This document shows positions 1,668 through 12,305 of a DNA stretch of 26,792 nucleotides, one piece after another. The notes beneath the pieces were generated by a model, which saw nothing but the letters and a program-made list of their open reading frames with translations, did no database searches and was not told the origin of the DNA. The position numbers and the translations under genes were made by a program. Position 1 is the first letter of the stretch. Each line of letters begins with the position of its first letter. Origin of the DNA: Candidatus Anderseniibacteriota bacterium (GTDB lineage: Bacteria; Patescibacteriota; Andersenbacteria; UBA10190); NCBI GenBank assembly GCA_003229735.1, contig QIFI01000066.1, positions 1 to 26,792 of the forward strand, read 5' to 3'.

Positions 1668-1726
1668 TGGTATACTTTCACTTCACCAACACAAACCTGT
1701 CAAAGTGAAGTATCTAAATCTATAAT
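1668..1726 (+). promoter_or_regulatory. Possible promoter(s) of the redox/copper cluster
   Basis: TG-G-TATACT (1668-1676) and TATAAT (1721-1726) with a weak -35 CTGTCA 18 nt upstream, in an AT-rich spacer. Confidence 0.3.
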
Positions 1727-1757: not shown

Positions 1758-2045
1758 ATGAAAAACGAAACACATCATAACAGCAAAAGCGTCACACCTT
1801 CCTCTTCATCCAGCCGCCCGACACATACTACTCACTCAAAATCTAAAAAACGGCCGGAATTTAGCGTTCCGGAAACATTAATCGTGGTGGTGGTTGTGCT
1901 GGTGATTATGTCAGCCGTTCAGGTGTATCAGGCCCAAAAACTACTGGCCGCCGTATCCAGCGGCGCGGTGGTGGCCCCGGCCGGCGCCCCAGCGGCCCCG
2001 GCCAACCCCATTGGACTGCCCAGCCAGGTCGGAGGCTGTGGATAA
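1758..2045 (+). CDS. Small single-TM protein with His/Ser-rich N-terminus and C-terminal LPSQVGGCG
   Basis: 95 aa; TM segment LIVVVVVLVIMSAV; Ala/Pro linker; ends in GGCG. Confidence 0.75.
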   Translation: MKNETHHNSKSVTPSSSSSRPTHTTHSKSKKRPEFSVPETLIVVVVVLVIMSAVQVYQAQKLLAAVSSGAVVAPAGAPAAPANPIGLPSQVGGCG

Positions 2046-2049
2046 GTTC

Positions 2050-2799
2050 ATGCCGTACCTCAAAACCCAAATAGTCCTGGGGCTACTTGTCTTTCTAGCT
2101 GTGCTTTATGGCGTCAACATCTTTCTCACCCAGAAACTTTCCGGCGTACTCATCGATAAGCCCGCCAAAATATCCTTCGCTATATTACTGCCCCCTCCGG
2201 ACAAGTGCGCCGACTGTTTTGACGCGGAAAGTATTATCAAAATGATTGACACTGCTCATAACATCAAATACACCAGCCAGCGCCTGGCCTACAATAGCCC
2301 GTTATCATCTAAATACATTGATACATATGGTATTGAAAATCTTCCCGCCCTGATTGTTTCCGGAGATATTGATAATAAAAAAGTTACAGCCGCCTGGACA
2401 GCTCTGGCCGGCCGGAAAAAAAACCAGCGGGTTGTCATCGCCAGCCAGCTTCCTTACTACAATATCGCCTCCAGTCAAGTTAAAGGAATCGTTAGTACGG
2501 TTCTGCTGACGGACGACACCTGTGCCGACTGTTTTGACGCCAATGAATATCTAACCGCTTTGGCCCGCTTCAACATAGTTTTAAATGATACGGCGGTATA
2601 TGATATTGCTTCTGATTCAGGCGCGGAACTAGTTCAAAAATACGACATTACCCGGGTCCCGACGCTAATCCTTTCACCAGACGTTGCTGACTATGAAGGC
2701 TTTGCTTCTTCCTGGTCAGAAGTTGGCACTATTGCCCCCGACGGCTGGTTTGTTTTTCGTGAAGTGCAAAAACTAAGCTCTCAATATCAGGAAATATGA
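2050..2799 (+). CDS. Membrane-anchored tandem thioredoxin-fold protein with two CxxC motifs (PDO-like)
   Basis: CADCFDA occurs twice, each followed by a cis-Pro-type motif (LPALI, VPTLI). ATG 2050 lies 4 nt after the previous stop and is preferred over 2011. Confidence 0.7.
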   Translation: MPYLKTQIVLGLLVFLAVLYGVNIFLTQKLSGVLIDKPAKISFAILLPPPDKCADCFDAESIIKMIDTAHNIKYTSQRLAYNSPLSSKYIDTYGIENLPALIVSGDIDNKKVTAAWTALAGRKKNQRVVIASQLPYYNIASSQVKGIVSTVLLTDDTCADCFDANEYLTALARFNIVLNDTAVYDIASDSGAELVQKYDITRVPTLILSPDVADYEGFASSWSEVGTIAPDGWFVFREVQKLSSQYQEI

Positions 2800-4229
2800 C
2801 TATCGATTCCTTATTTCACCTAGTCCGCCATACGGCCTCGCTGTTTAAGAGCCGGTTTAATATCGCCGTTTTTTCCATCGCCCTGCTGTTTTTTATCGGA
2901 TTGCTGTCTTTCTTTTACGGGCTTTTCACTATCCCCATGCCCACTGGAGTTATTGGCTTCTACCGCATGGAGCCGCCCACAAGCTTTGAAATTTTCTATC
3001 TGTTTTTCTCGGCCATTGTCTCGGCTCTCATTATCACCATCACCATATATTCCTCCCGAATGAAAATCGCCGCCAGCACCACAGGTAGAAGCACGTCGGC
3101 CCTGGGGCTGGCCACCGGTATATTCGGCGCCGTTTGTCCGGCCTGTTTAGGCATTAATTTTCTGGCTTTTGGCAATGTTTTCACCGCCCAACTGGCTTTC
3201 CTTATCCCTTACATTTTTTGGATTCAAGTTGGTGGAATAATCCTGTTGTCTCTCGGACTTTATTTTGTCGCCCAAAGCGCCTACCGCAAATCCTGCCTCT
3301 CATGCTCATCTGACAGCCCAACTAAACAGCCCCTCGAATCCACCCCCAAATCTAAATCTAATTTCAACAACGATCCGGCCCTTAAAAAATTTACGGCCGT
3401 TGCCCTGGGCGCGATCATTATCTTTGCCTACCAGATAACCACGGTATTAGGAGAAAATCCGCCCCCCGACCCGACCTCATCAGGTCCCAACCTGGTTACC
3501 ACCAGCGGTCAGACTGTCAACATCGACGCAGTTATCGAATCAGTCACCCCTAAAGATGGATTCACTACCAACGTAAAGTGGAATGATATAGTAGACAAAA
3601 TGGTCAAAGCTGGAGTATTGGATCCCGATAAACTCGCCAGTATTCTCACCAAGCGATATCAACAGCCCATGCAGCCCGAATGGAGCGCCGTGCTGGCCGG
3701 GGAAGATGCCAATCTTACTATTAACAATGACAATGCCGTTTTCATGATGTATGTGCTGTGGACGCTAGCCAAACATAACCAGAATGAAATTTTGACCAAC
3801 AGTCCCTTTGCCAAAAGCTTCGTTAAATATGACATCGGCGTCGGACGCCCCGGCTATGGAGACACGCCGCTTCTGGCCTTAACGCCGGATCAGCAGGCCA
3901 TCGCCCAAAAAGTCGCCGCCAACGCTTATCGCCCCTGTTGCGGCAACTCCACCGCCGCTCCCGATTGTTCTCATGGATACTCCGCCCTGGGGCTCATAGA
4001 GCTAATGGCCTCGCAAGGTTTCTCTGAATCCGAGATATTTGCCGCCTTTATTCAATTCAATTCATTTTGGTTCCCGGAAACATACATTAAAAACGCCCTG
4101 TATTTCAAAATTACCCAGGATCAGGACTGGGATAATGTTTCCAAAGAACTCGTCGCCGGACCGGAATATTCAACTCTCAAAGGGTCTTTCACCGCCAAAA
4201 ATTATCTTAAAAATAACTTCGGAATATAA
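2796..4229 (+). CDS. Uncharacterised Cys-rich membrane protein (TM domain with CPAC and CLSC; globular domain with RPCCGNST..PDCSHG)
   Basis: 477 aa, about 5 TM segments followed by a soluble domain; ATGA overlap with the upstream gene. Confidence 0.8.
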   Translation: MTIDSLFHLVRHTASLFKSRFNIAVFSIALLFFIGLLSFFYGLFTIPMPTGVIGFYRMEPPTSFEIFYLFFSAIVSALIITITIYSSRMKIAASTTGRSTSALGLATGIFGAVCPACLGINFLAFGNVFTAQLAFLIPYIFWIQVGGIILLSLGLYFVAQSAYRKSCLSCSSDSPTKQPLESTPKSKSNFNNDPALKKFTAVALGAIIIFAYQITTVLGENPPPDPTSSGPNLVTTSGQTVNIDAVIESVTPKDGFTTNVKWNDIVDKMVKAGVLDPDKLASILTKRYQQPMQPEWSAVLAGEDANLTINNDNAVFMMYVLWTLAKHNQNEILTNSPFAKSFVKYDIGVGRPGYGDTPLLALTPDQQAIAQKVAANAYRPCCGNSTAAPDCSHGYSALGLIELMASQGFSESEIFAAFIQFNSFWFPETYIKNALYFKITQDQDWDNVSKELVAGPEYSTLKGSFTAKNYLKNNFGI

Positions 4230-4273
4230 GTTAAATTATTAAAATACAGTAAATCAATGTATAATTAACCCCC

Positions 4274-5350
4274 ATGGAAAACACTAACGGCAGTGCCATC
4301 AGCGACCGGGCCAAAAAATGGCTGGTGATGATCGCTTTCATCTTATTCTCAATCCTATTAGTGGGCATCTTTTACCTGTTTATGACACCCGGGGAAACGG
4401 TCAATCTCGCTTTTGCCTATGTCGTCGGCCTGTCCATGATTGTCCTGCCCTGTACCTTGCCTCTGGCTTTTGTAATTGTGCCGATGGCCATGGGCAAAAG
4501 CGCCAAAAAAGGTTTATTAATGTCCATTTTCTTTGGTCTGGGGCTCTCTATAACCCTTTCTATCTACGGTCTTTTTGTGGCGGTCATCGGAAAATCAATT
4601 GGTCTCGATCAGGCCGTCGGCAGTGCCGGCCTGGTCAGTCGGATATTATTTATCATTGGCGGTCTGGCCGCTTTCATTTTTGGCCTCTCTGAATTGAATT
4701 TAATTAAGTTCAAAATGCCCAGCTATAAAGGTTCATATCCTGATTTTATCCAACAGCAGGGAGATTATCTAAAAGCCTTTTTTCTGGGGCTTTTTCTGGG
4801 CAATGCCGGTGTCGGGTGCCCAAATCCACTCTTCTACGTTCTCCTGGGCGATATAGCCGTCGTTGGCAGTATTGTTAATGGCTGGTGGCTGGGGTTTATT
4901 CATGGCGTCGGACGAGCCACGCCACTGGTCTTTTTAGCTATCCTGGGCATCCTGGGAGTCAATGCCGTCAGCAATATTTCTAAAAAAACTGTTCTGGTAA
5001 CCAAGTGGACCGGCATCAGCCTTATCTTGCTCGGCGCTTTCATATTCATCAGCGGCACCTCTCATCAGTGGTATGAGGGAACCATTGTCCATAAAGGCTG
5101 GAATCAGATAGTTCAGCTGGTCACCGGAGATGACAATAAAATTGCTGAAATCGAAGAACATGAAGAAGCCCCCGGTACCCTGCCCGGAGATGGACACGAT
5201 GAAGCCGCCCCCCCGGCCGATGATCACGCGGATAACGCGGACTTTATTCCCGCCCCCTGGTCATGGATAACTCTTTTACTGATGGTAATCATTCCTCTTG
5301 GCTGGTATAAATATAAGCAAACAAAAGTGGAAGTGCCTAAAGTACCTTAG
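4274..5350 (+). CDS. ccdA: CcdA/DsbD-family transmembrane disulfide reductase with a His/acidic loop
   Basis: Two membrane Cys motifs (VLPCTLP, GVGCPNP) in a multi-TM core; EEHEE..GHDE..DDHAD segment before the last TM. Confidence 0.75.
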   Translation: MENTNGSAISDRAKKWLVMIAFILFSILLVGIFYLFMTPGETVNLAFAYVVGLSMIVLPCTLPLAFVIVPMAMGKSAKKGLLMSIFFGLGLSITLSIYGLFVAVIGKSIGLDQAVGSAGLVSRILFIIGGLAAFIFGLSELNLIKFKMPSYKGSYPDFIQQQGDYLKAFFLGLFLGNAGVGCPNPLFYVLLGDIAVVGSIVNGWWLGFIHGVGRATPLVFLAILGILGVNAVSNISKKTVLVTKWTGISLILLGAFIFISGTSHQWYEGTIVHKGWNQIVQLVTGDDNKIAEIEEHEEAPGTLPGDGHDEAAPPADDHADNADFIPAPWSWITLLLMVIIPLGWYKYKQTKVEVPKVP

Positions 5351-5361
5351 GCATTATAATT

Positions 5362-5523
5362 ATGGGGTGCTGCGGATCAAATTCAGCCCAGTCGACCAAT
5401 GAACAAGAGCCAGAACGCGATCATGTTCATATTGACCGGCCTGATCATAGTCGCGCCAAAATTATTCTGATTAGAGTTACTGTCGTTGTATTAATAGTCG
5501 GGCTGGTAATTTGGATGATCTGA
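5362..5523 (+). CDS. 53-aa tail-anchored small protein beginning MGCCG (not in ORF track)
   Basis: Hand translation: MGCCGSNSAQSTNEQEPERDHVHIDRPDHSRAKIILIRVTVVVLIVGLVIWMI*. It starts 11 nt after the ccdA stop. Confidence 0.65.
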   Translation: MGCCGSNSAQSTNEQEPERDHVHIDRPDHSRAKIILIRVTVVVLIVGLVIWMI

Positions 5524-5577
5524 ATTATTTTATAATCAATTAGAGCCCAAGACTTAAAAATATTAAAGCCAGATAAT

Positions 5578-7821
5578 ATGAACCAAGATCATAAACCTTC
5601 TAAATCTCATCAGTCAAATAATCACCAGGATTGTTCCGTCTGCGGGAAAAAGTGCGTTTCCTGCCAGGTTAACCGTCTGGCCGTCAGCACCGGCTCCAGT
5701 ATGGAAGCTAAACAGTATGAATATAATCTTGACCAAAAACTAACGCATCAGGAGCATGATGCTCGGAGCGGCAGCCAGGATATGTCTGACATGTCAACCA
5801 TGAACCATCAGGACCACGATTCCGCCATGAGCAATCCGCAAATGGCCCAGGATATGGAGCGCGATATGAAAAAACGATTTTGGATAGCTCTCGTCCTTAC
5901 CGTCCCCATTTTATTATATTCGCCGCTGGCCATAAATATTTTTAAGCTGTATCTTCCCAGCCCCATTCCCATCAACTGGCTGCTGTTGATCCTTACTACT
6001 CCGGTAGTATTTTGGACTGGCTCCATTTTTATCACCGGCGCCTACAATTCGTTGAAGAACCGGGTGCTCAATATGTCCGTCTTGATTTCGGTCGGCGTTT
6101 TATCGGCTTATTTATTTAGCATATTCATTACCTTATTTATCGGCGGAGAAACATTCTTTGAAGCCGCCGCCATGCTCATCACTTTTGTTCTATTCGGACA
6201 TTGGATGGAAATGAAATCCAGAAAAGGCACCTCCGACTCTCTGCGCGCCTTATTTGATCTGGTTCCTCCTAAAGCCATTGTTATTCGTCAAGGCCGGGAA
6301 GTTGAGATTTTAACCCGCCAAATCCAATTAAATGATATTGTTCTGGTAAAACCTGGTGACAAGATACCGGTCGACGGAACCATATCTAAAGGCGAAAGCA
6401 CTATTGATGAATCGCTTGTCACCGGCGAATCCATGCCCGTCTTTAAAAAAATATCAGATAAAGTAATTGGCGGATCAATAAACAAAACTGGTTCAGTAGA
6501 ATTCAAAGTAACTCAAGTCGGCAGTGATACCGCCCTGGCCCAAATTATTAAGCTGGTGGAAAAAGCCCAGAACTCCAAGGCCCCGGGCCAGCGCATTGCC
6601 GATAAAGCCGCCGCCTATCTGGTGATCTTGGCTGTCGGTGCCGGCATTGCCACTTTTTTTGGCTGGTATCTGATCGCCGGAGCCACTTTAATTACGGCTT
6701 TCACTTTTGCCATTTCCGTAGTGGTGATCGCTTGTCCTGACGCTCTGGGCCTGGCCACCCCCACCGCCGTGGCGGTTGGCACCGGCATCGGCGCCCGCCA
6801 TAATATCCTGATCAAAGACGCGGCTACTCTGGAGAGAGCCTCTAAAATCCAAGCCATCCTGCTGGACAAAACCGGCACCTTAACTGAAGGCCGTCCCGTT
6901 ATCGACAGCGTCACCACTATTGACGGAGTTTCCGAACGTGATCTATTATATTTTTCCGGCGGCGCTCAAAAACTCTCCAGTCATCCCTTTAGTGAAGCCA
7001 TTATCAATGAAACTGATCGGCGTCAGATTGATTTGCCTACTGACATCAAGAACTTTACGGCCGTTGGTGGACTTGGCGTCAAAGCCACTGTCGATGGTCG
7101 GCCGGTATTGGTTGGCACCATGCGATTTCTGGAATCAGAAAAAGTTGATGTGGCTGGAGTCAAAAGCCTGGCCGACCAACTGCTTAAACAAGGTAAAACC
7201 GTTAGCCTGGTTTCCCTGGATGGTCAGGCGATCGGCGCCCTGGCCGTTTCCGATAAAATTAAAGAGACGGCCAAAAATGCCGTTGCCGGTTTTAAAAAAA
7301 TTGGCATTGCCACCGCCATGATTACCGGCGACCATGACCAGATAGCCAAGATTGTCGCTAAGCAAGTCGGCATCACCAGAGTTTTTGCCAATGTCCTGCC
7401 CTCTGAAAAAGCTGATTACGTCAAAAAGATGCAGGCCGAAGGTAAATTTACGGCCATGGTTGGAGATGGCATCAATGACGCGCCGGCCCTGGCCCAATCA
7501 GATATTGGTATTGCTATCGGCGCCGGCACGGATGTAGCCATTGAGACAGCCGACATTGTTTTGATGAAATCTGATCCGGAGGACATATTGCGGGCCATCG
7601 CCTTATCCAAAGCCACCGTCAGAAAAATGAAGCAGAACCTCTTTTGGGCCGCTATCTATAACGTGGCCGCGATTCCCATAGCCGCCGGATTATTTTACAC
7701 TTCCCTGGGCTGGTCCTTAAGGCCGGAAGTATCGGCCCTCTTAATGTCCGCGTCATCAATCATTGTCGCCACCAATGCCGTGCTGTTAAAACGCATCGAG
7801 CCTAAACTTAAAAATGTCTAG
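5578..7821 (+). CDS. copA: Copper-translocating P1B-type ATPase (CopA/CopB-like, CPD variant)
   Basis: TGES, CPDALGLATP, DKTGT, HP, GDGIND, TM YN and MSASS motifs; His/Met-rich N-terminus with CxxC-x3-CxxC. Confidence 0.92.
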   Translation: MNQDHKPSKSHQSNNHQDCSVCGKKCVSCQVNRLAVSTGSSMEAKQYEYNLDQKLTHQEHDARSGSQDMSDMSTMNHQDHDSAMSNPQMAQDMERDMKKRFWIALVLTVPILLYSPLAINIFKLYLPSPIPINWLLLILTTPVVFWTGSIFITGAYNSLKNRVLNMSVLISVGVLSAYLFSIFITLFIGGETFFEAAAMLITFVLFGHWMEMKSRKGTSDSLRALFDLVPPKAIVIRQGREVEILTRQIQLNDIVLVKPGDKIPVDGTISKGESTIDESLVTGESMPVFKKISDKVIGGSINKTGSVEFKVTQVGSDTALAQIIKLVEKAQNSKAPGQRIADKAAAYLVILAVGAGIATFFGWYLIAGATLITAFTFAISVVVIACPDALGLATPTAVAVGTGIGARHNILIKDAATLERASKIQAILLDKTGTLTEGRPVIDSVTTIDGVSERDLLYFSGGAQKLSSHPFSEAIINETDRRQIDLPTDIKNFTAVGGLGVKATVDGRPVLVGTMRFLESEKVDVAGVKSLADQLLKQGKTVSLVSLDGQAIGALAVSDKIKETAKNAVAGFKKIGIATAMITGDHDQIAKIVAKQVGITRVFANVLPSEKADYVKKMQAEGKFTAMVGDGINDAPALAQSDIGIAIGAGTDVAIETADIVLMKSDPEDILRAIALSKATVRKMKQNLFWAAIYNVAAIPIAAGLFYTSLGWSLRPEVSALLMSASSIIVATNAVLLKRIEPKLKNV

Positions 7822-7823
7822 AC

Positions 7824-7997
7824 ATGAGCCATAAAGCCAAAAGCATATATTTCGCCGTCTTCGCTGTCTTATATCTGGGCTACACCGCGTTCATCGCCGG
7901 GCACGGCTTTCATTGGACAAATTCCATCATCACTATCACCATTCTAGCCTTATCAGGTTATTATTATCTAAAGCATCAAAACCAGTCAAAATCATGA
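7824..7997 (+). CDS. 57-aa two-TM small protein (not in ORF track)
   Basis: MSHKAKSIYFAVFAVLYLGYTAFIAGHGFHWTNSIITITILALSGYYYLKHQNQSKS*. It starts 2 nt after the ATPase stop, and its TGA overlaps the next ATG (ATGA). Confidence 0.65.
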   Translation: MSHKAKSIYFAVFAVLYLGYTAFIAGHGFHWTNSIITITILALSGYYYLKHQNQSKS

Positions 7998-8461
7998 CCC
8001 AATCAAAGAACATTTGGTATAGCTTGCTCATTCTCGCCGCAATAATTATTGTAGTTGGCCTTTATTGGACGCGGCGATCCCAGACAACAATTCAAAATCA
8101 GCCGGCCGCCAGCCAGTCTGAAAAACCGCTCGCCTTTACCGGACTTAGTTCACGGCAGTTAAGCGACCTTCTGCCCAACAAAGATTTTACTTTGATTGAT
8201 GTGCATATTCCCGAACAGGTCCACGTGCCGGGCACGGATTTTATGATTCCCTATAATGATCTTACTGCTCTAATCAAAGTTCTGCCGGATAAACAGGCTA
8301 AAATAGTTCTCTATTGCCGGTCTGGAAGTATGAGTAAAACAGCCGCCCAGGCTCTGGTTGACCAGGGTTATGCCAACATATTTGATCTAACCAACGGCAT
8401 GAACGAATGGCTGTCCGAAGGCCGGGCCACTATACCCCTGGGCAGTATTCCTGAAATATAG
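7994..8461 (+). CDS. Membrane-anchored rhodanese-like domain protein
   Basis: N-terminal TM, LIDV motif, active-site loop YCRSGSMS, and L..GMNEW. True start is likely ATG 7994 rather than 7913. Confidence 0.85.
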   Translation: MTQSKNIWYSLLILAAIIIVVGLYWTRRSQTTIQNQPAASQSEKPLAFTGLSSRQLSDLLPNKDFTLIDVHIPEQVHVPGTDFMIPYNDLTALIKVLPDKQAKIVLYCRSGSMSKTAAQALVDQGYANIFDLTNGMNEWLSEGRATIPLGSIPEI

Positions 8462-8527: not shown

Positions 8528-10399
8528 ATGATTAGCGGAGTCGCTACTACCAGAAAAAAAGTCAGCGTGGTTATGGTAGCAGTCGCGCCTATCCATGGAC
8601 AAGTTGTCTGGTTGGGCTGGCAAAAATCCGGCCAGGTTATTAGGCCTCGAGTATTTACCTCTCAACCGAACGGGGCCATTAAACCCTCCCCGCGATCCGT
8701 CAGCCTGACCAGAACTGACGGCAGTGACTATGTCGCCCTGGGCCTGGCCGATGCCCGGCTGGCCCAAGTGGAAGACAAATATATGTTGACCTGGAGGGAA
8801 GTCCTGGATAGCCGTTCCAGCCCGATGATGGTGGCCGTCTCGGCTGACTTAGCCTCCTGGACGGTTTACGACACCAATATCAATGCCTCCGGCCCCTCCA
8901 TAATTGTTTCGCAATATTCCTGGCAGAATCGCTTAGTTATGTATTATGAAGATGGTTTAATCCGGATGGCGACTTCACCGGAAGGGCAAAAATGGCACAG
9001 CTGGGATCGGTTTATGCTTGCTCCCCGATCAACCAAATTTGATCACGGTCTATTGTCCATTCTGGCATCATGGCAGACCAGTCAGGGAGTTTTGACAATT
9101 TATGATGCTTCGATTAGAAAATCTGATAGTTGGCAGTTAAGAATTGGCGCTCTGTTCACCTCAACAGATGAACCGTTCCAGATAATCTGGAGAAGCGAGC
9201 GGCCCCTGATCAAGGTTGATCTACCGGAACAACAAGCCATTAGACCGGTGGGCAGTGTCCTGTTAAATGGATATGTGCATTGCTATTGGCAAAAGCAGGA
9301 TGGTTCAGTTTTTACCATGTCGGCTCTGGCCCCCACCATTAAAAAACTAAACATTAAGCGTCACGTCTCACCTTTAGTTAGACATAGAGCTAACCCCATT
9401 CTTGAGCCTACGAATCAGGCCTGGGAATCCACTGGCACCTTTAATCCGGCCGTCCTCCATGATGATGACGGAATTATCCATCTGATATACCGGGCCGTGG
9501 GCCATGATGGCTTATCAGTTTTTGGCTATGCCAAAAGCGAAGATGGCACCACTATTACCGAGCGCTCCACCCGGCCGGCCTATTGGCCCAGGGAAATTTG
9601 GGAAGGAGTTAATTCTCAACCCAGCCGCTACAGTGAAATATTCTTATCCGGCGGCGGCTGGGGCGGGTGCGAGGATCCAAAATTAACCCGGATTGGCGAC
9701 ACCGTCTATATGACTTATGTGGCCTTCAACGGATGGGGGCCCCCGCGCGCGGCTTTGACCTCCCTGCATATTGATGATTTCAGGGCTCAAAATTGGAATT
9801 GGTCGCCGCCTCAACTTATATCACCGCCGGATACGATTACCAAAAGCGCCTGCTTATTATCAGAAAAAATCAATGGCAAGTTTGTCATGTTCCATCGGAT
9901 ATTTCCTGATATTTTAATCGACTATTTAGATGATCTGGAATTTGGCGAAGATAAATGGCTGGCCGGACACGACCGAATTGGCATCCGCGCCTCCTTTTGG
10001 GATAGCCGAAAGTTAAGTATCGGCGCCCCGCCCATCAAATGTGATCAGGGGTGGCTGGCGATTTATCACGCCGTAGATGATCGTGATCCTTCCCGATACA
10101 AAATGGGAGCCATGCTGTTGGATCGTGATAATCCATCTCGAGTCATCCGGCGCACCAGTCGGCCCTTAATTTGCCCTGATGTTCATTATGAGAACGAAGG
10201 CAAACCCGGGGTAGTCTATCCTTCCGGCGCGGCTATTAAAGATGATCGTCTGCTGGTTTATTATGGCGGCGGAGACCGCGTGGTTTGTGTGGCCGAGTCT
10301 CCGATTAAAAAATTTATGTCTTTCCTGATGAAATCGGAAAACATCGACGCGCCATTAAAAATAAGACCGGAAGATAAATGCATACGGGCTCTGGAGTAA
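8528..10399 (+). CDS. GH130-family glycosidase/phosphorylase; degenerate N-terminal domain plus intact C-terminal domain
   Basis: NPIL..., FNPAV, GCEDPKL, and YPSGA...YYGGGD motifs; the N-terminal half retains only a weak ADARL echo. Confidence 0.85.
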   Translation: MISGVATTRKKVSVVMVAVAPIHGQVVWLGWQKSGQVIRPRVFTSQPNGAIKPSPRSVSLTRTDGSDYVALGLADARLAQVEDKYMLTWREVLDSRSSPMMVAVSADLASWTVYDTNINASGPSIIVSQYSWQNRLVMYYEDGLIRMATSPEGQKWHSWDRFMLAPRSTKFDHGLLSILASWQTSQGVLTIYDASIRKSDSWQLRIGALFTSTDEPFQIIWRSERPLIKVDLPEQQAIRPVGSVLLNGYVHCYWQKQDGSVFTMSALAPTIKKLNIKRHVSPLVRHRANPILEPTNQAWESTGTFNPAVLHDDDGIIHLIYRAVGHDGLSVFGYAKSEDGTTITERSTRPAYWPREIWEGVNSQPSRYSEIFLSGGGWGGCEDPKLTRIGDTVYMTYVAFNGWGPPRAALTSLHIDDFRAQNWNWSPPQLISPPDTITKSACLLSEKINGKFVMFHRIFPDILIDYLDDLEFGEDKWLAGHDRIGIRASFWDSRKLSIGAPPIKCDQGWLAIYHAVDDRDPSRYKMGAMLLDRDNPSRVIRRTSRPLICPDVHYENEGKPGVVYPSGAAIKDDRLLVYYGGGDRVVCVAESPIKKFMSFLMKSENIDAPLKIRPEDKCIRALE

Positions 10400-10400
10400 T

Positions 10401-12305
10401 ATGTTCATTGTTAGGCGCCAGGATCATAATCCTATCATCACCCCTGATTGGCACCGGCCCTGGGCCGCCCGAGCCGTCTTTAATTGGTGTCCTTGGTCAG
10501 AGCCAAACCAAACCCATGTAGTCTATCGCGCCGAAGCCAACGTTGACCCCTTGACCGAGATGGAAGTAGGCATGTCAACCATTGGTTATGCTCAAAGCCG
10601 GGATGGCATCCATTATACTGATCATCGCCAGTTAATAACCCCCCAGGAGCCCTGGGAGAAATATGGGTGCGAAGATCCCCGGATTACCAGAATTGCTGGT
10701 AATTACCTGATATTCTACACGGCTCTCGGCGACTACCCATTTTCCGCCAAAGGAATTAAAGTAGCCGTCGCTTTAACGGATAATCTAAAAGAAATTCAGG
10801 CCAGGCATCTGGTTACGCCATTTAATGCCAAAGCCATGGTCATGTTTCCGGATCGAATTGGCGGTAAAATGATGGCCTTATTGACGGTTAATACCGATGA
10901 CCCGCCGGCCAGCGTGGCCCTGGCTTCCTTCGACAATCTATCCGATATTTGGTCGACAGCCAAATGGCTGCAATGGTACAAATATCTGGAGCAATCCGAA
11001 TTGGATCTCCACCGTGAACCTGGAGACCACTGCGAAGTGGGAGCGCCGCCGATCAAAACCAAAGCCGGGTGGCTGGTAATATACGCTCGTATCAAACATT
11101 ATTTCTCCGAGGATCGGATATTCGGCGTAGAAGCAGTTCTACTGGATTTAAAAGACCCTCGTCAAGTAATTGCCCGCACTCAATATCCTCTCCTGGTGCC
11201 GCAAGCTCTTTACGAAAAAAACGGTCAGATGCCTAATATAATTTTTCCCAGCGGGGCCTTATCAAAAAGAAAAAAAATTCAAATATTCTATGGTGGAGCC
11301 GACACCGTTTGCTGTCAGGCTGAAGTAGAAACAGATCATCTATTAACAGCCATGGCGGCTAAGCCCGGCCAGGATTTTATGAAGAGATCAGCCGAAAATC
11401 CTATTCTCGCCCCGATTAAAGATCATGCCTGGGAGTCCAAGGCGGTATTTAATCCGGCCGCCATAGCCGCTGGCGGGCGTTATCACCTGCTATACCGGGC
11501 CATGTCGGAAGATGATACGTCCGTCATTGGCTACGCCTCTAGTCCCGACGGTGAAAATTTTGATCAGCGATTACCAAAGCCGGTTTATCTGCCCCGTGAA
11601 TCGTTTGAGATTAAGGGGGCGGATAATGTCGGGTCGGGTTGTGAAGACGCCAGAATGGTTCTGGTAGAAGACAAGATATTCATGACTTATACTGCTTATA
11701 ACGGCGTTAGTGACCCTCGAGTCGCCATCACCTCTATTAAGATAGATGACTTTATCAACCATCGCTGGGATTGGGCTAAACCCTATTTAATTTCCCCGCC
11801 CGGGATTATGGACAAAAACACCTGTATTATGCCGACCAGAATTGACGGCAGATATATGATGCTGCACCGGATAAATGTCAACATTTGCGGCGAATATATT
11901 GACTCTCTGGACTTTTCTCAAGAGAAGCTGGAACACTGTATAGAAATTATGAGGCCCCGGCGCGGTATGTGGGACAGCCTGAAGATCGGCATTTCCGCTC
12001 CCCCCATTAAAACCAAAGCCGGATGGCTTCTGCTTTATCATGGGATAGGGGAAGATCACGCCTATCGGGTGGGAGCCGCTTTATTAGACCTTGAACATCC
12101 CGCCACCGTCTTAAGCCGAACTAACACTCCTTTACTGGAACCAATAGAGTCATATGAAAAAGAGGGGCAGGTAAACAACGTAGTCTTTCCTTGCGGGGCC
12201 GTAGAAATTGGCGGAGAAATATATGTATATTATGGCGGAGCAGATTCCTATGTAGGCCTGGCCAAATTCAACCTAAAAGATTTACTAAAAATCCTCACCG
12301 CTTAA
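10401..12305 (+). CDS. GH130-family glycosidase/phosphorylase with two tandem domains
   Basis: Two repeats of NPI...FN...GCED(P/A)R...FP(S/C)GA...YGGAD. Confidence 0.88.
   Translation: MFIVRRQDHNPIITPDWHRPWAARAVFNWCPWSEPNQTHVVYRAEANVDPLTEMEVGMSTIGYAQSRDGIHYTDHRQLITPQEPWEKYGCEDPRITRIAGNYLIFYTALGDYPFSAKGIKVAVALTDNLKEIQARHLVTPFNAKAMVMFPDRIGGKMMALLTVNTDDPPASVALASFDNLSDIWSTAKWLQWYKYLEQSELDLHREPGDHCEVGAPPIKTKAGWLVIYARIKHYFSEDRIFGVEAVLLDLKDPRQVIARTQYPLLVPQALYEKNGQMPNIIFPSGALSKRKKIQIFYGGADTVCCQAEVETDHLLTAMAAKPGQDFMKRSAENPILAPIKDHAWESKAVFNPAAIAAGGRYHLLYRAMSEDDTSVIGYASSPDGENFDQRLPKPVYLPRESFEIKGADNVGSGCEDARMVLVEDKIFMTYTAYNGVSDPRVAITSIKIDDFINHRWDWAKPYLISPPGIMDKNTCIMPTRIDGRYMMLHRINVNICGEYIDSLDFSQEKLEHCIEIMRPRRGMWDSLKIGISAPPIKTKAGWLLLYHGIGEDHAYRVGAALLDLEHPATVLSRTNTPLLEPIESYEKEGQVNNVVFPCGAVEIGGEIYVYYGGADSYVGLAKFNLKDLLKILTA

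Follow-up and report, generated by a model that had tools for sequence, protein, structure and literature searches.

A gene cluster with a copper-type ATPase and a candidate outward-facing cysteine relay in an Andersenbacteria contig

Genes of the cluster and the cysteine arm

We have analysed a 26.8-kb stretch of DNA, hereafter the window, which is one whole contig (QIFI01000066.1) of a Candidatus Anderseniibacteriota genome (1.01 Mb in 131 contigs, 94% complete). At 1758–8461 the window carries a cluster of eight open reading frames (ORFs), all on the + strand and separated by gaps of −4 to 54 nt (Table 1). A copper-type P1B ATPase (gene 6) is found there together with a CcdA-type transporter (gene 4), a probable double-thioredoxin protein (gene 2), a rhodanese (gene 8) and a membrane protein with a cysteine-bearing outer domain (gene 3). 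This work mainly concerns the relation between gene 3 and the small gene 1, and the part that the whole cluster may play in copper defence. The best named relatives of the window genes are from Patescibacteria, e.g., Roizmanbacteria.

The first-pass annotation had described eight co-directional, closely spaced ORFs with two ATGA overlaps, which is confirmed here, and the overlaps (at 2796–2799 and 7994–7997) can be read directly in the sequence. The cysteine and histidine motifs that it listed are all there, i.e., the GGCG end, two CADC, CPAC, CLSC, PCC..C, the CcdA pair C60/C182, MGCCG, CPD, HGFH and CRSG. It had also called nearly all the products membrane-anchored, which agrees with at least one hydrophobic helix being predicted in each of the eight. 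As for the conservation of the cysteines, which it made a point of, they are indeed invariant in the homologues, except that the 53-residue ORF with the MGCCG motif is not conserved; the other seven ORFs have conserved homologues.

For two genes an in-frame start further upstream had to be weighed. Gene 2 should start at the ATG at 2050 rather than at the TTG at 2011, and gene 8 at the ATG at 7994 rather than at the TTG at 7913. The only sizeable upstream gap is the one of 125 nt before gene 1.

Table 1 Features of the cluster in the window. Positions are those of the window; aa, amino acids.
Feature	Coordinates	Strand	Description
Promoter-like site	1697..1726	+	CTGTCA-18 nt-TATAAT; consensus match only; in the 125-nt gap upstream of gene 1
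Gene 1	1758..2045	+	95-aa single-pass membrane protein; basic N-terminus inside, ~35-residue low-complexity tail outside
Gene 2	2050..2799	+	Membrane-anchored; two probable thioredoxin folds (PDO-like), each with CxxC (CADC here)
Gene 3, N-terminal module	2796..3470	+	Five predicted transmembrane helices
Gene 3, outer domain	3498..4229	+	Invariant R379-P-C381-C382...D390-C391-x-H393-G; without the usual family C-terminal cysteine arm
Gene 4	4274..5350	+	CcdA-type membrane thiol/electron transporter; acidic His-rich loop, extra C-terminal transmembrane helix
ORF 5	5362..5523	+	53 aa; MGCCG N-terminus, C-terminal transmembrane helix
Gene 6	5578..7821	+	Copper-type P1B ATPase; CPD in place of CPC/CPH; Cys/His-rich N-terminus
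Gene 7	7824..7997	+	57-aa membrane protein with HGFH; one hydrophobic segment over threshold, a second likely
Gene 8	7994..8461	+	Membrane-anchored single-domain rhodanese

Gene 1 has no usable match in Pfam or NCBIfam. Its product ends in an invariant SQVGGCG, with the cysteine at position −2, and the homologues from the Candidate Phyla Radiation (CPR) and from Aenigmarchaeota have the identical end. Most members of the family to which the outer domain of gene 3 belongs also finish in a Gly/Ser-rich tail with a single cysteine, e.g., ...GGGCGV or ...GGSCGA. In 132 of the 145 arm-bearing members this cysteine is at −3, i.e., it is followed by two residues, commonly in the form GG[GS]CG[VA]. 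The subfamily of the window's own gene 3 ends in ...NFGI or ...LGL and is without the cysteine tail. At all 13 loci with such a tail-less gene 3, bacterial as well as archaeal, we have found an adjacent small ORF with a transmembrane anchor and the SQVGGCG end. The tally has 73 other loci. Not one of them has a small arm ORF next to the gene, and at 72 the domain carries an arm of its own at its end.

Since the tail-less gene 3 homologues always adjoin an SQVGGCG gene, gene 1 probably supplies in trans the cysteine arm that is missing from gene 3. The pattern of fused or split arms is the strongest single result of this work, and it says that the gene 1 tail and the gene 3 domain should work together. 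That gene 1 is a detached arm of the gene 3 domain family had been overlooked in the earlier reading. In addition, the Gly-Gly codons of the GGCG end of gene 1 spell GGAGG at 2031–2035, 14 nt before the ATG of gene 2, so that the conserved tail also gives a Shine-Dalgarno-like sequence.

Genes 1, 2 and 3 form a trio that is kept together at 13/13 loci of the subfamily. The trio is common to Aenigmarchaeota and CPR bacteria, with an identity of about 48% between them. Because gene 3 is 46–50% identical between the two (L005, L007 and L013–L015 versus L003 and L008–L011) and the end of gene 1 is identical across them, this distribution implies that the trio should have been transferred between the domains of life.

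The outer domain of gene 3

Judged by sequence comparison, the outer domain of gene 3 is the founder of a large family that has not been described. Over its full length of 477 residues, the gene 3 product has homologues with 41–69% identity in CPR bacteria and Aenigmarchaeota. An exhaustive HMMER search gave 378 cluster representatives of the outer domain (at 50% identity), most of which match only residues ~240–475. In a scan of one genome per species, the family was found at no fewer than 588 loci, at least, spread over CPR bacteria, DPANN archaea (Aenigm-, Micr- and Naiadarchaeota) and Chloroflexota. No Pfam model covers it, and only unnamed relatives in the AFDB clusters and unnamed clusters in the protein language-model atlas were retrieved. 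Literature searches returned general papers on Scs, Ccm, CsoR and Sox and no publication describing the family or its gene set, in line with the earlier remark that no characterised operon of the full composition was known.

By the positive-inside rule, 58 of the 73 single-pass members are oriented with the N-terminus in and the C-terminus out, which places the domain outside the cell. AlphaFold2 (AF2) predicts the domain with pLDDT >95, both in gene 3 and in the arm-bearing paralogue of the same genome. Within the family the domain is fused to HMA, cupredoxin, DsbC_N and rhodanese domains; the rhodanese fusion is found in a 220-member cluster of the Atlas, in one AFDB cluster and in 3 of 90 aligned members.

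Structure and profile comparisons both point to CcmH. When the arm-bearing paralogue was compared with 48,161 chains by VIA-align, the periplasmic domain of CcmH (2hl7_A) was the sole outlier with Z 4.9 (78 of 82 residues aligned, root-mean-square deviation 3.1), and the next best structure reached Z 3.3. A shape search of the ESM Atlas gave, ranked after the family's own clusters, five clusters of CcmH/NrfF (PF03918), with TM scores of 0.22–0.26 by model and up to 0.50 by hit. We have further aligned the family by hhalign with 32 diverse CcmH sequences, which were taken from Chloroflexota genomes. The match is at 74% (P 2.8e-5) for the alignment of arm-bearing members and at 69% (P 4.5e-5) for that of gene 3. 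It pairs R379 with the first CcmH cysteine, P380 with the CcmH proline, C382 with the second cysteine and D390-C391 with the conserved D-S, so the motif in common is P-x-C-x-N...D-[SC]-N. The LRCxxC motif of CcmH itself is absent from the outer domain, where an invariant RPCC is in its place.

Overall, these alignments and models indicate that the outer domain is a probable remote relative of CcmH, and not a CcmH member, because the Pfam model is blind to it, because RPCC replaces LRCxxC, and because the partner machinery is absent. Actually, even with E allowed up to 1, PF03918 finds nothing in the genome, which is 94% complete, and this genome has neither a heme lyase match over cut-off (CcmC/CcmF/CcsA, PF01578) nor a cytochrome c domain (PF13442). 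The lack of a cytochrome c gene, which had been stated for the window, thus extends to the 94% of the genome that is available, in which no c-type machinery was found.

Like CcmH/NrfF/CycL (PF03918; 2hl7), the gene 3 domain is membrane-anchored and outward-facing, and it probably resembles the three-helix bundle of CcmH in having a helical core with the reactive cysteines in the loop after helix 1. Both systems also have a CcdA-type transporter and a thioredoxin-fold partner, which for CcmH is the thio-reduction branch of System I with CcmG and DsbD/CcdA. On the other hand, the gene 3 domain has ~240 residues against ~80 in CcmH, an extra invariant Cys-x-His, and a tethered cysteine arm, here on a separate gene. 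Unlike CcmH, its family is tied to copper ATPases, without a heme lyase or a c-type cytochrome. As a side observation, some true CcmH proteins of Chloroflexota (PF03918 over cut-off; L093, L094, L095 and L122) carry two extra cysteines after the CxxC, in CPVC-x-NTPLDVC-x-T-xx-C, which is reminiscent of the extra cysteine in the gene 3 domain.

The N-terminal membrane module of gene 3 is less easily placed. It has an invariant CPxC (C114/C117; CPAC here) in its third transmembrane helix (TM3) and a mostly conserved CxxC (C167/C170) in a basic, probably cytoplasmic loop before TM5. Neither the module (the first 225 residues) nor the whole of gene 3 matches any Pfam model at E up to 0.1, MerT, MerC and MerF included, and NCBIfam gives no usable match to gene 3 either. 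The fold matches of the module are weak and non-specific, with one VKOR-domain model in AFDB at E 0.025. Its 50 best matches among solved structures include no DsbB/VKOR chain and are generic helical bundles with Z up to 7.4. In DsbB/VKOR the second cysteine pair faces outward, but in this module it is in the probably cytoplasmic loop.

Neighbouring genes and the other copper loci

We have surveyed the genomic context by calling ORFs in 84 non-redundant loci of the family, clustering them and annotating the representatives, with neighbours counted within 8 kb. P1B ATPases are present at 46 of the 84 loci, and at 20 of the 26 loci that have full 8-kb flanks. CcdA-like membrane proteins and DUF1573-like proteins occur at 38 loci each, 26 and 29 of them within two genes. 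CsoR follows with 26 loci, DsbA-like proteins with 18, rhodanese with 13, cupredoxin with 10, DUF302 and DoxX with 9 each and CopG/DUF411 with 6. Rhodanese was counted by its catalytic active-site column, apart from the DUF1573-like proteins that fusion proteins join to rhodanese.

All 36 readable linked ATPases carry a copper-type motif in the transport helix (CPC in 17, CPH in 12 and CPD in 7). Every linked CsoR protein has retained its Cys and His ligands for metal (x-C-H-C or x-C-H-H), and there is no protein like CstR, the persulfide sensor, among them.

A family of ~280-aa CcdA-like proteins, found at L018, L020, L042, L059 and ~30 other loci, is weakly similar to DsbD_TM and has no Pfam match. 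It carries vicinal cysteine pairs, FAPCC in TM1 and xCCAPV in TM4, at the places where CcdA has a single cysteine; the APCC and CCAPV pairs are present in 28 of 34 CcdA-like neighbours. At L058 such a protein appears to be fused in frame to a gene 3-type domain. Three other unnamed neighbours recur (L011:5878-6779, L059:8798-9690 and other loci): a ~150-aa protein with four transmembrane helices and an invariant SCCAHYL, a ~165-aa secreted protein with THS...GGHH motifs, and a Met-rich MMGGEGSESL...MH protein that often has a SHOCT domain at its end. Homology of the gene 3 membrane module to the SCCAH membrane family or to the CcdA-like family is not supported (hhalign P 0.59 and 0.24, respectively).

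The co-occurrence of the genes in other genomes, which the first-pass annotation had counted on, is thus borne out by the trio and by the copper ATPases, while its eight-gene unit is not. As read from gene order, the locus is a set of shuffled modules (the trio; CcdA with gene 7; the ATPase) and not a fixed unit of eight genes. The sulfur transfer that it had coupled to copper export turned out to be the weakest link, rhodanese being only an occasional neighbour.

The same genome has a second copper locus on another contig (L128:4434-11704, − strand; L002). It contains copA with two HMA domains, a Met-rich/SHOCT protein, DUF302, a 92-aa ORF, a 235-aa ORF and DUF1573, together with the arm-bearing gene 3-domain paralogue, which has 311 aa and finishes in ...SGCGV, and a CcdA-like protein of 296 aa that carries the APCC and CCAPV pairs (L002:522-1412, −). 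A CsoR box lies ~30 nt upstream of this copA. The 1.0-Mb genome therefore holds two copies of the gene 3 domain, each next to a copper ATPase, which suggests that the function matters to these cells.

On a further contig (C114; L092, L131) there is a csoR of the x-C-H-H type, preceded by the perfect palindrome AATAATACCCT-N3-AGGGTATTATT. Downstream of csoR come a gene 4 paralogue of 377 aa, which has a Cys-rich outer loop in place of the acidic, His-rich one, and a 151-aa Cys-rich protein with the same CC-x-V-x-PC-xx-CL...CEC motif as that paralogue. A second CsoR box and then an 85-aa thioredoxin come next. Canonical CsoR boxes (ATACCC-N5-GGGTAT) number three in the genome, i.e., before the copA of the second copper locus, before csoR, and one more on C114; the reversed control pattern gave 0.

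Turning to the individual genes of the window, gene 2 has invariant cysteines C53/C56 and C158/C161 in the comparison of homologues. Its matches to the thioredoxin models of Pfam and NCBIfam are below cut-off, and against the PDO model TIGR02187 it scores 23 bits with a cut-off of 185. A profile of 13 homologues does match PDO structures at E 2e-4 to 3e-3, with archaeal PDO (1j08/1a8l) at E 2e-4 and with 2ywm/2ayt aligned over both halves. Gene 2 thus probably shares with the PDO of Pyrococcus and Aquifex (PDB 1a8l, 1j08, 2ayt) the two thioredoxin folds with a CxxC in each; unlike PDO it is membrane-anchored, probably outward-facing and of the CADC type, and its score is far under the family cut-off.

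Gene 4 matches PF02683 (CcdA/DsbD_TM) with 31.2 bits (cut-off 27.1) and has one cysteine per half, in LPCTLP (C60) and GCPNP (C182), as in canonical CcdA. Its orthologues come after CsoR at L008 and on contig C114. Homologues of gene 7, 72% and 68% identical, stand directly after the CcdA orthologue at L009 and L059. Gene 7 and ORF 5 have no usable Pfam or NCBIfam match. ORF 5 is not supported as a gene by these comparisons, because a homologue could be detected neither in 86 related loci nor elsewhere in its own genome.

Gene 6 matches TIGR01511 with 574 bits (cut-off 397), and CPD, YN, MSASS and DKTGT can be read in it. Where gene 6 has CPD, CopA has CPC and CopB has CPH; CPD has been noted in Rhizobiales as a P1B-3 variant of CPH (PMC5552934). 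The CPD-type ATPases make up a recognisable group, i.e., gene 6 and those at L020, L031, L047, L062, L066 and L070. Five of these seven have an N-terminal CPMH...CPxCGM heavy-metal-binding motif, and gene 6 has a CxxC-xxx-CxxC region there. Gene 8 matches PF00581 with 48.9 bits (cut-off 22.2) and has the active-site loop CRSGSMS. Directly downstream of the cluster and on the same strand, a pair of neighbouring ORFs, paralogous to each other and 623 and 634 aa long, occupies 8528–12305.

A proposed copper-defence relay and its alternatives

Based on the above analyses, we propose that the cluster serves in copper defence by combining a P1B copper exporter with a relay of cysteines that face outward, and we put the chance of this at somewhat better than even. 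Reducing power would enter through CcdA (gene 4), by analogy with the path from DsbD/CcdA to CcmG and CcmH; gene 3's own cytoplasmic CxxC and intramembrane CPAC could be a second entry. Electrons would then pass to gene 2, which would hand them to the CcmH-like cluster in gene 3 and to the cysteine on the tethered arm that gene 1 supplies. Kept reduced in this way, the Cys3-His cluster and the arm cysteine may capture the Cu(I) coming out of the ATPase on the outer side, or hand it on; as an alternative output, they may resolve Cu(I)-catalysed disulfides. Together they would act as a protein-tethered thiol buffer at the cell surface, with the rhodanese as an optional accessory. A relay from CcdA over the double thioredoxin to a Cys-rich target had already been put forward in the first-pass annotation. 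The target as a remote CcmH relative fits such a relay, in which the way the electrons flow and the part played by the thiols are inferred.

The setting agrees with what is known of copper stress and copper operons. Cu(I) that has been exported attacks thiols outside the cytoplasm and switches on reductive Dsb pathways (bioRxiv 10.64898/2026.10.17.759849). Like the CsoR-regulated cop operons (csoR-copZ-copA), the locus joins a copper P1B ATPase to accessory surface proteins, and, as in those operons, CsoR is present in the related loci counted above and on two other contigs of the genome. Extracytoplasmic copper helpers are exemplified by CopL of S. aureus. Unlike the cop operons, the window has no CsoR box, csoR gene or CopZ, and its helper families are unrelated.

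Several results weigh against the proposed copper-defence relay. The operator pattern search finds no CsoR box within the window, so that copper control of this copy is at most putative. Of 201 genomes sampled from the phylum, no more than 20 carry the family, so its function should be accessory. Concerning the kinship with CcmH, Foldseek finds no PDB match at E ≤ 0.001 for either model, the hidden Markov model of the family gives chance matches only against PDB sequences, PF03918 has no match in gene 3 and, with E allowed up to 10, none in 90 family members either, and a shallow CcmH alignment from enterobacteria reaches only 1.3% in hhalign. Concerning the arm, AF2 shows that of the arm-bearing paralogue as disordered and not docked. 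The fused-or-split pattern also has irregular cases: at L016 and L034 the domain has an arm, and in addition a longer ORF with a GGCG end lies several kb off, and L058 is without an arm, its open frame continuing into a CcdA-like gene. Finally, the vicinal Cys-Cys pairs that recur in the membrane proteins of these islands fit metal hand-over better than disulfide exchange, and on this sequence feature we lean towards metal hand-over.

A more specific version of the copper-defence relay can be put forward tentatively, with a probability well below even. The Gly-flanked terminal cysteine may be a protein-tethered swinging arm, recycled by CcdA and the PDO-like protein, which moves its cargo between the ATPase exit and the Cys3-His pocket of a CcmH-derived domain; this cargo would be Cu(I) or a species of copper and sulfur formed with the help of the rhodanese. 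If true, this would be a covalent-carrier form of extracellular metal detoxification that replaces small-molecule thiols and is common to CPR bacteria and DPANN archaea.

The arm invites a different explanation, in which its cysteine carries sulfane sulfur as in SoxY. The rhodanese would load it, the CcmH-like cluster would process it, and CcdA with the thioredoxin-fold protein would reset the carrier; the sulfur delivered outside could serve to trap copper, in the form of sulfide, or to detoxify reactive sulfur. The Sox system employs a CcdA homologue (SoxV) and thioredoxins (SoxW/SoxS). The soxV, soxW and soxS genes are named in PMC5748708, and SoxY has a carboxy-terminal GGCGG carrier arm (PMC6067878; PMC5336275). 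In favour of this reading, the family arm resembles that of SoxY in geometry, being a flexible C-terminal arm with a Gly-flanked cysteine at −3 in 132 of 145 members, accessory CcdA and thioredoxins go with both systems, a rhodanese belongs to this operon, and rhodanese-domain fusions exist. We nevertheless consider a sulfur carrier unlikely. Rhodanese is near the domain at 13 of 84 loci, against 46 of 84 for copper ATPases, and the genomic context is one of copper; the linked CsoR-family regulators keep metal-type histidines and none is CstR-like. Moreover, there is no SoxY fold, as the arm sits on a helical CcmH-like domain or on a bare transmembrane anchor and not on a beta-sandwich, and the cysteine of gene 1 is at −2.

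It is likewise unlikely, and we would rate it a little lower, that the proteins are a general disulfide repair system of the Scs kind, which would reduce or isomerise the wrong disulfides caused by copper without touching the metal. The parts would suit it, i.e., CcdA, a thioredoxin-fold protein, DsbA-like neighbours and a CcmH-like oxidoreductase. There is also precedent, since the reductive envelope thiol pathway of Scs, with ScsB, is linked to copper tolerance (PMC3322552), as is DsbD-DsbC (PMC3322552; bioRxiv 10.64898/2026.10.17.759849). In the Scs (ScsB-ScsC/ScsD) and DsbD-DsbC/CueP systems of Proteobacteria, envelope thiol reduction fed by the DsbD family is tied to copper tolerance in the same way (PMC3322552). 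Unlike these, the present locus belongs to single-membrane CPR/DPANN cells, its soluble parts are non-homologous, it has the CcmH-like domain and the tethered arm, and the exporter is adjacent. Repair has no evident need for a dedicated tethered arm whose single cysteine is conserved to the residue, and the HMA and cupredoxin fusions together with the Cys3-His cluster suggest direct metal contact. Besides, ultra-small genomes generally encode few exported disulfide proteins.

The membrane module of gene 3 could also be a conduit of the MerT/MerC kind, passing Cu(I) or another soft metal inward for sensing or re-export, and the CcdA-like proteins with Cys-Cys pairs could do likewise. Its cysteines do lie in three tiers (outside, in TM3 and in the basic loop), the neighbours with APCC/CCAPV pairs and those with SCCAH have vicinal cysteines too, and the ligand-exchange logic matches that of MerP-MerT. 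We regard this as improbable, given that MerT, MerC and MerF have no Pfam match here, that 3 of 29 homologues lack the cytoplasmic CxxC, that copper import beside an exporter brings no evident benefit, and that gene 4 is a canonical CcdA. A remnant or variant of cytochrome c maturation (the CcdA-CcmG-CcmH branch), or the chance adjacency of unrelated membrane genes, is hardly credible: the CcmH-like core and CcdA would suit the former, but the 94%-complete genome has no CcmH, heme lyase or cytochrome c domain match and the Chloroflexota carriers of the family also keep a true CcmH, and the latter is ruled out, since the neighbourhood recurs in 84 bacterial and archaeal loci.

The fate of Cu(I) after its expulsion is poorly understood in single-membrane cells, and knowledge of it is altogether lacking for CPR bacteria and DPANN archaea. 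The putative copper-defence locus described here is a concrete and widespread candidate for dealing with the expelled Cu(I) in these organisms. Its parts are separable and can be tested in vitro, i.e., the soluble Cys3-His domain, the peptide arm, the two-thioredoxin partner and CcdA, and the split versus fused arm is a natural experiment that reveals which partners interact. If the proposal is true, CcmH, which is known only from cytochrome c maturation, would have been recruited to metal defence in cells without c-type cytochromes.

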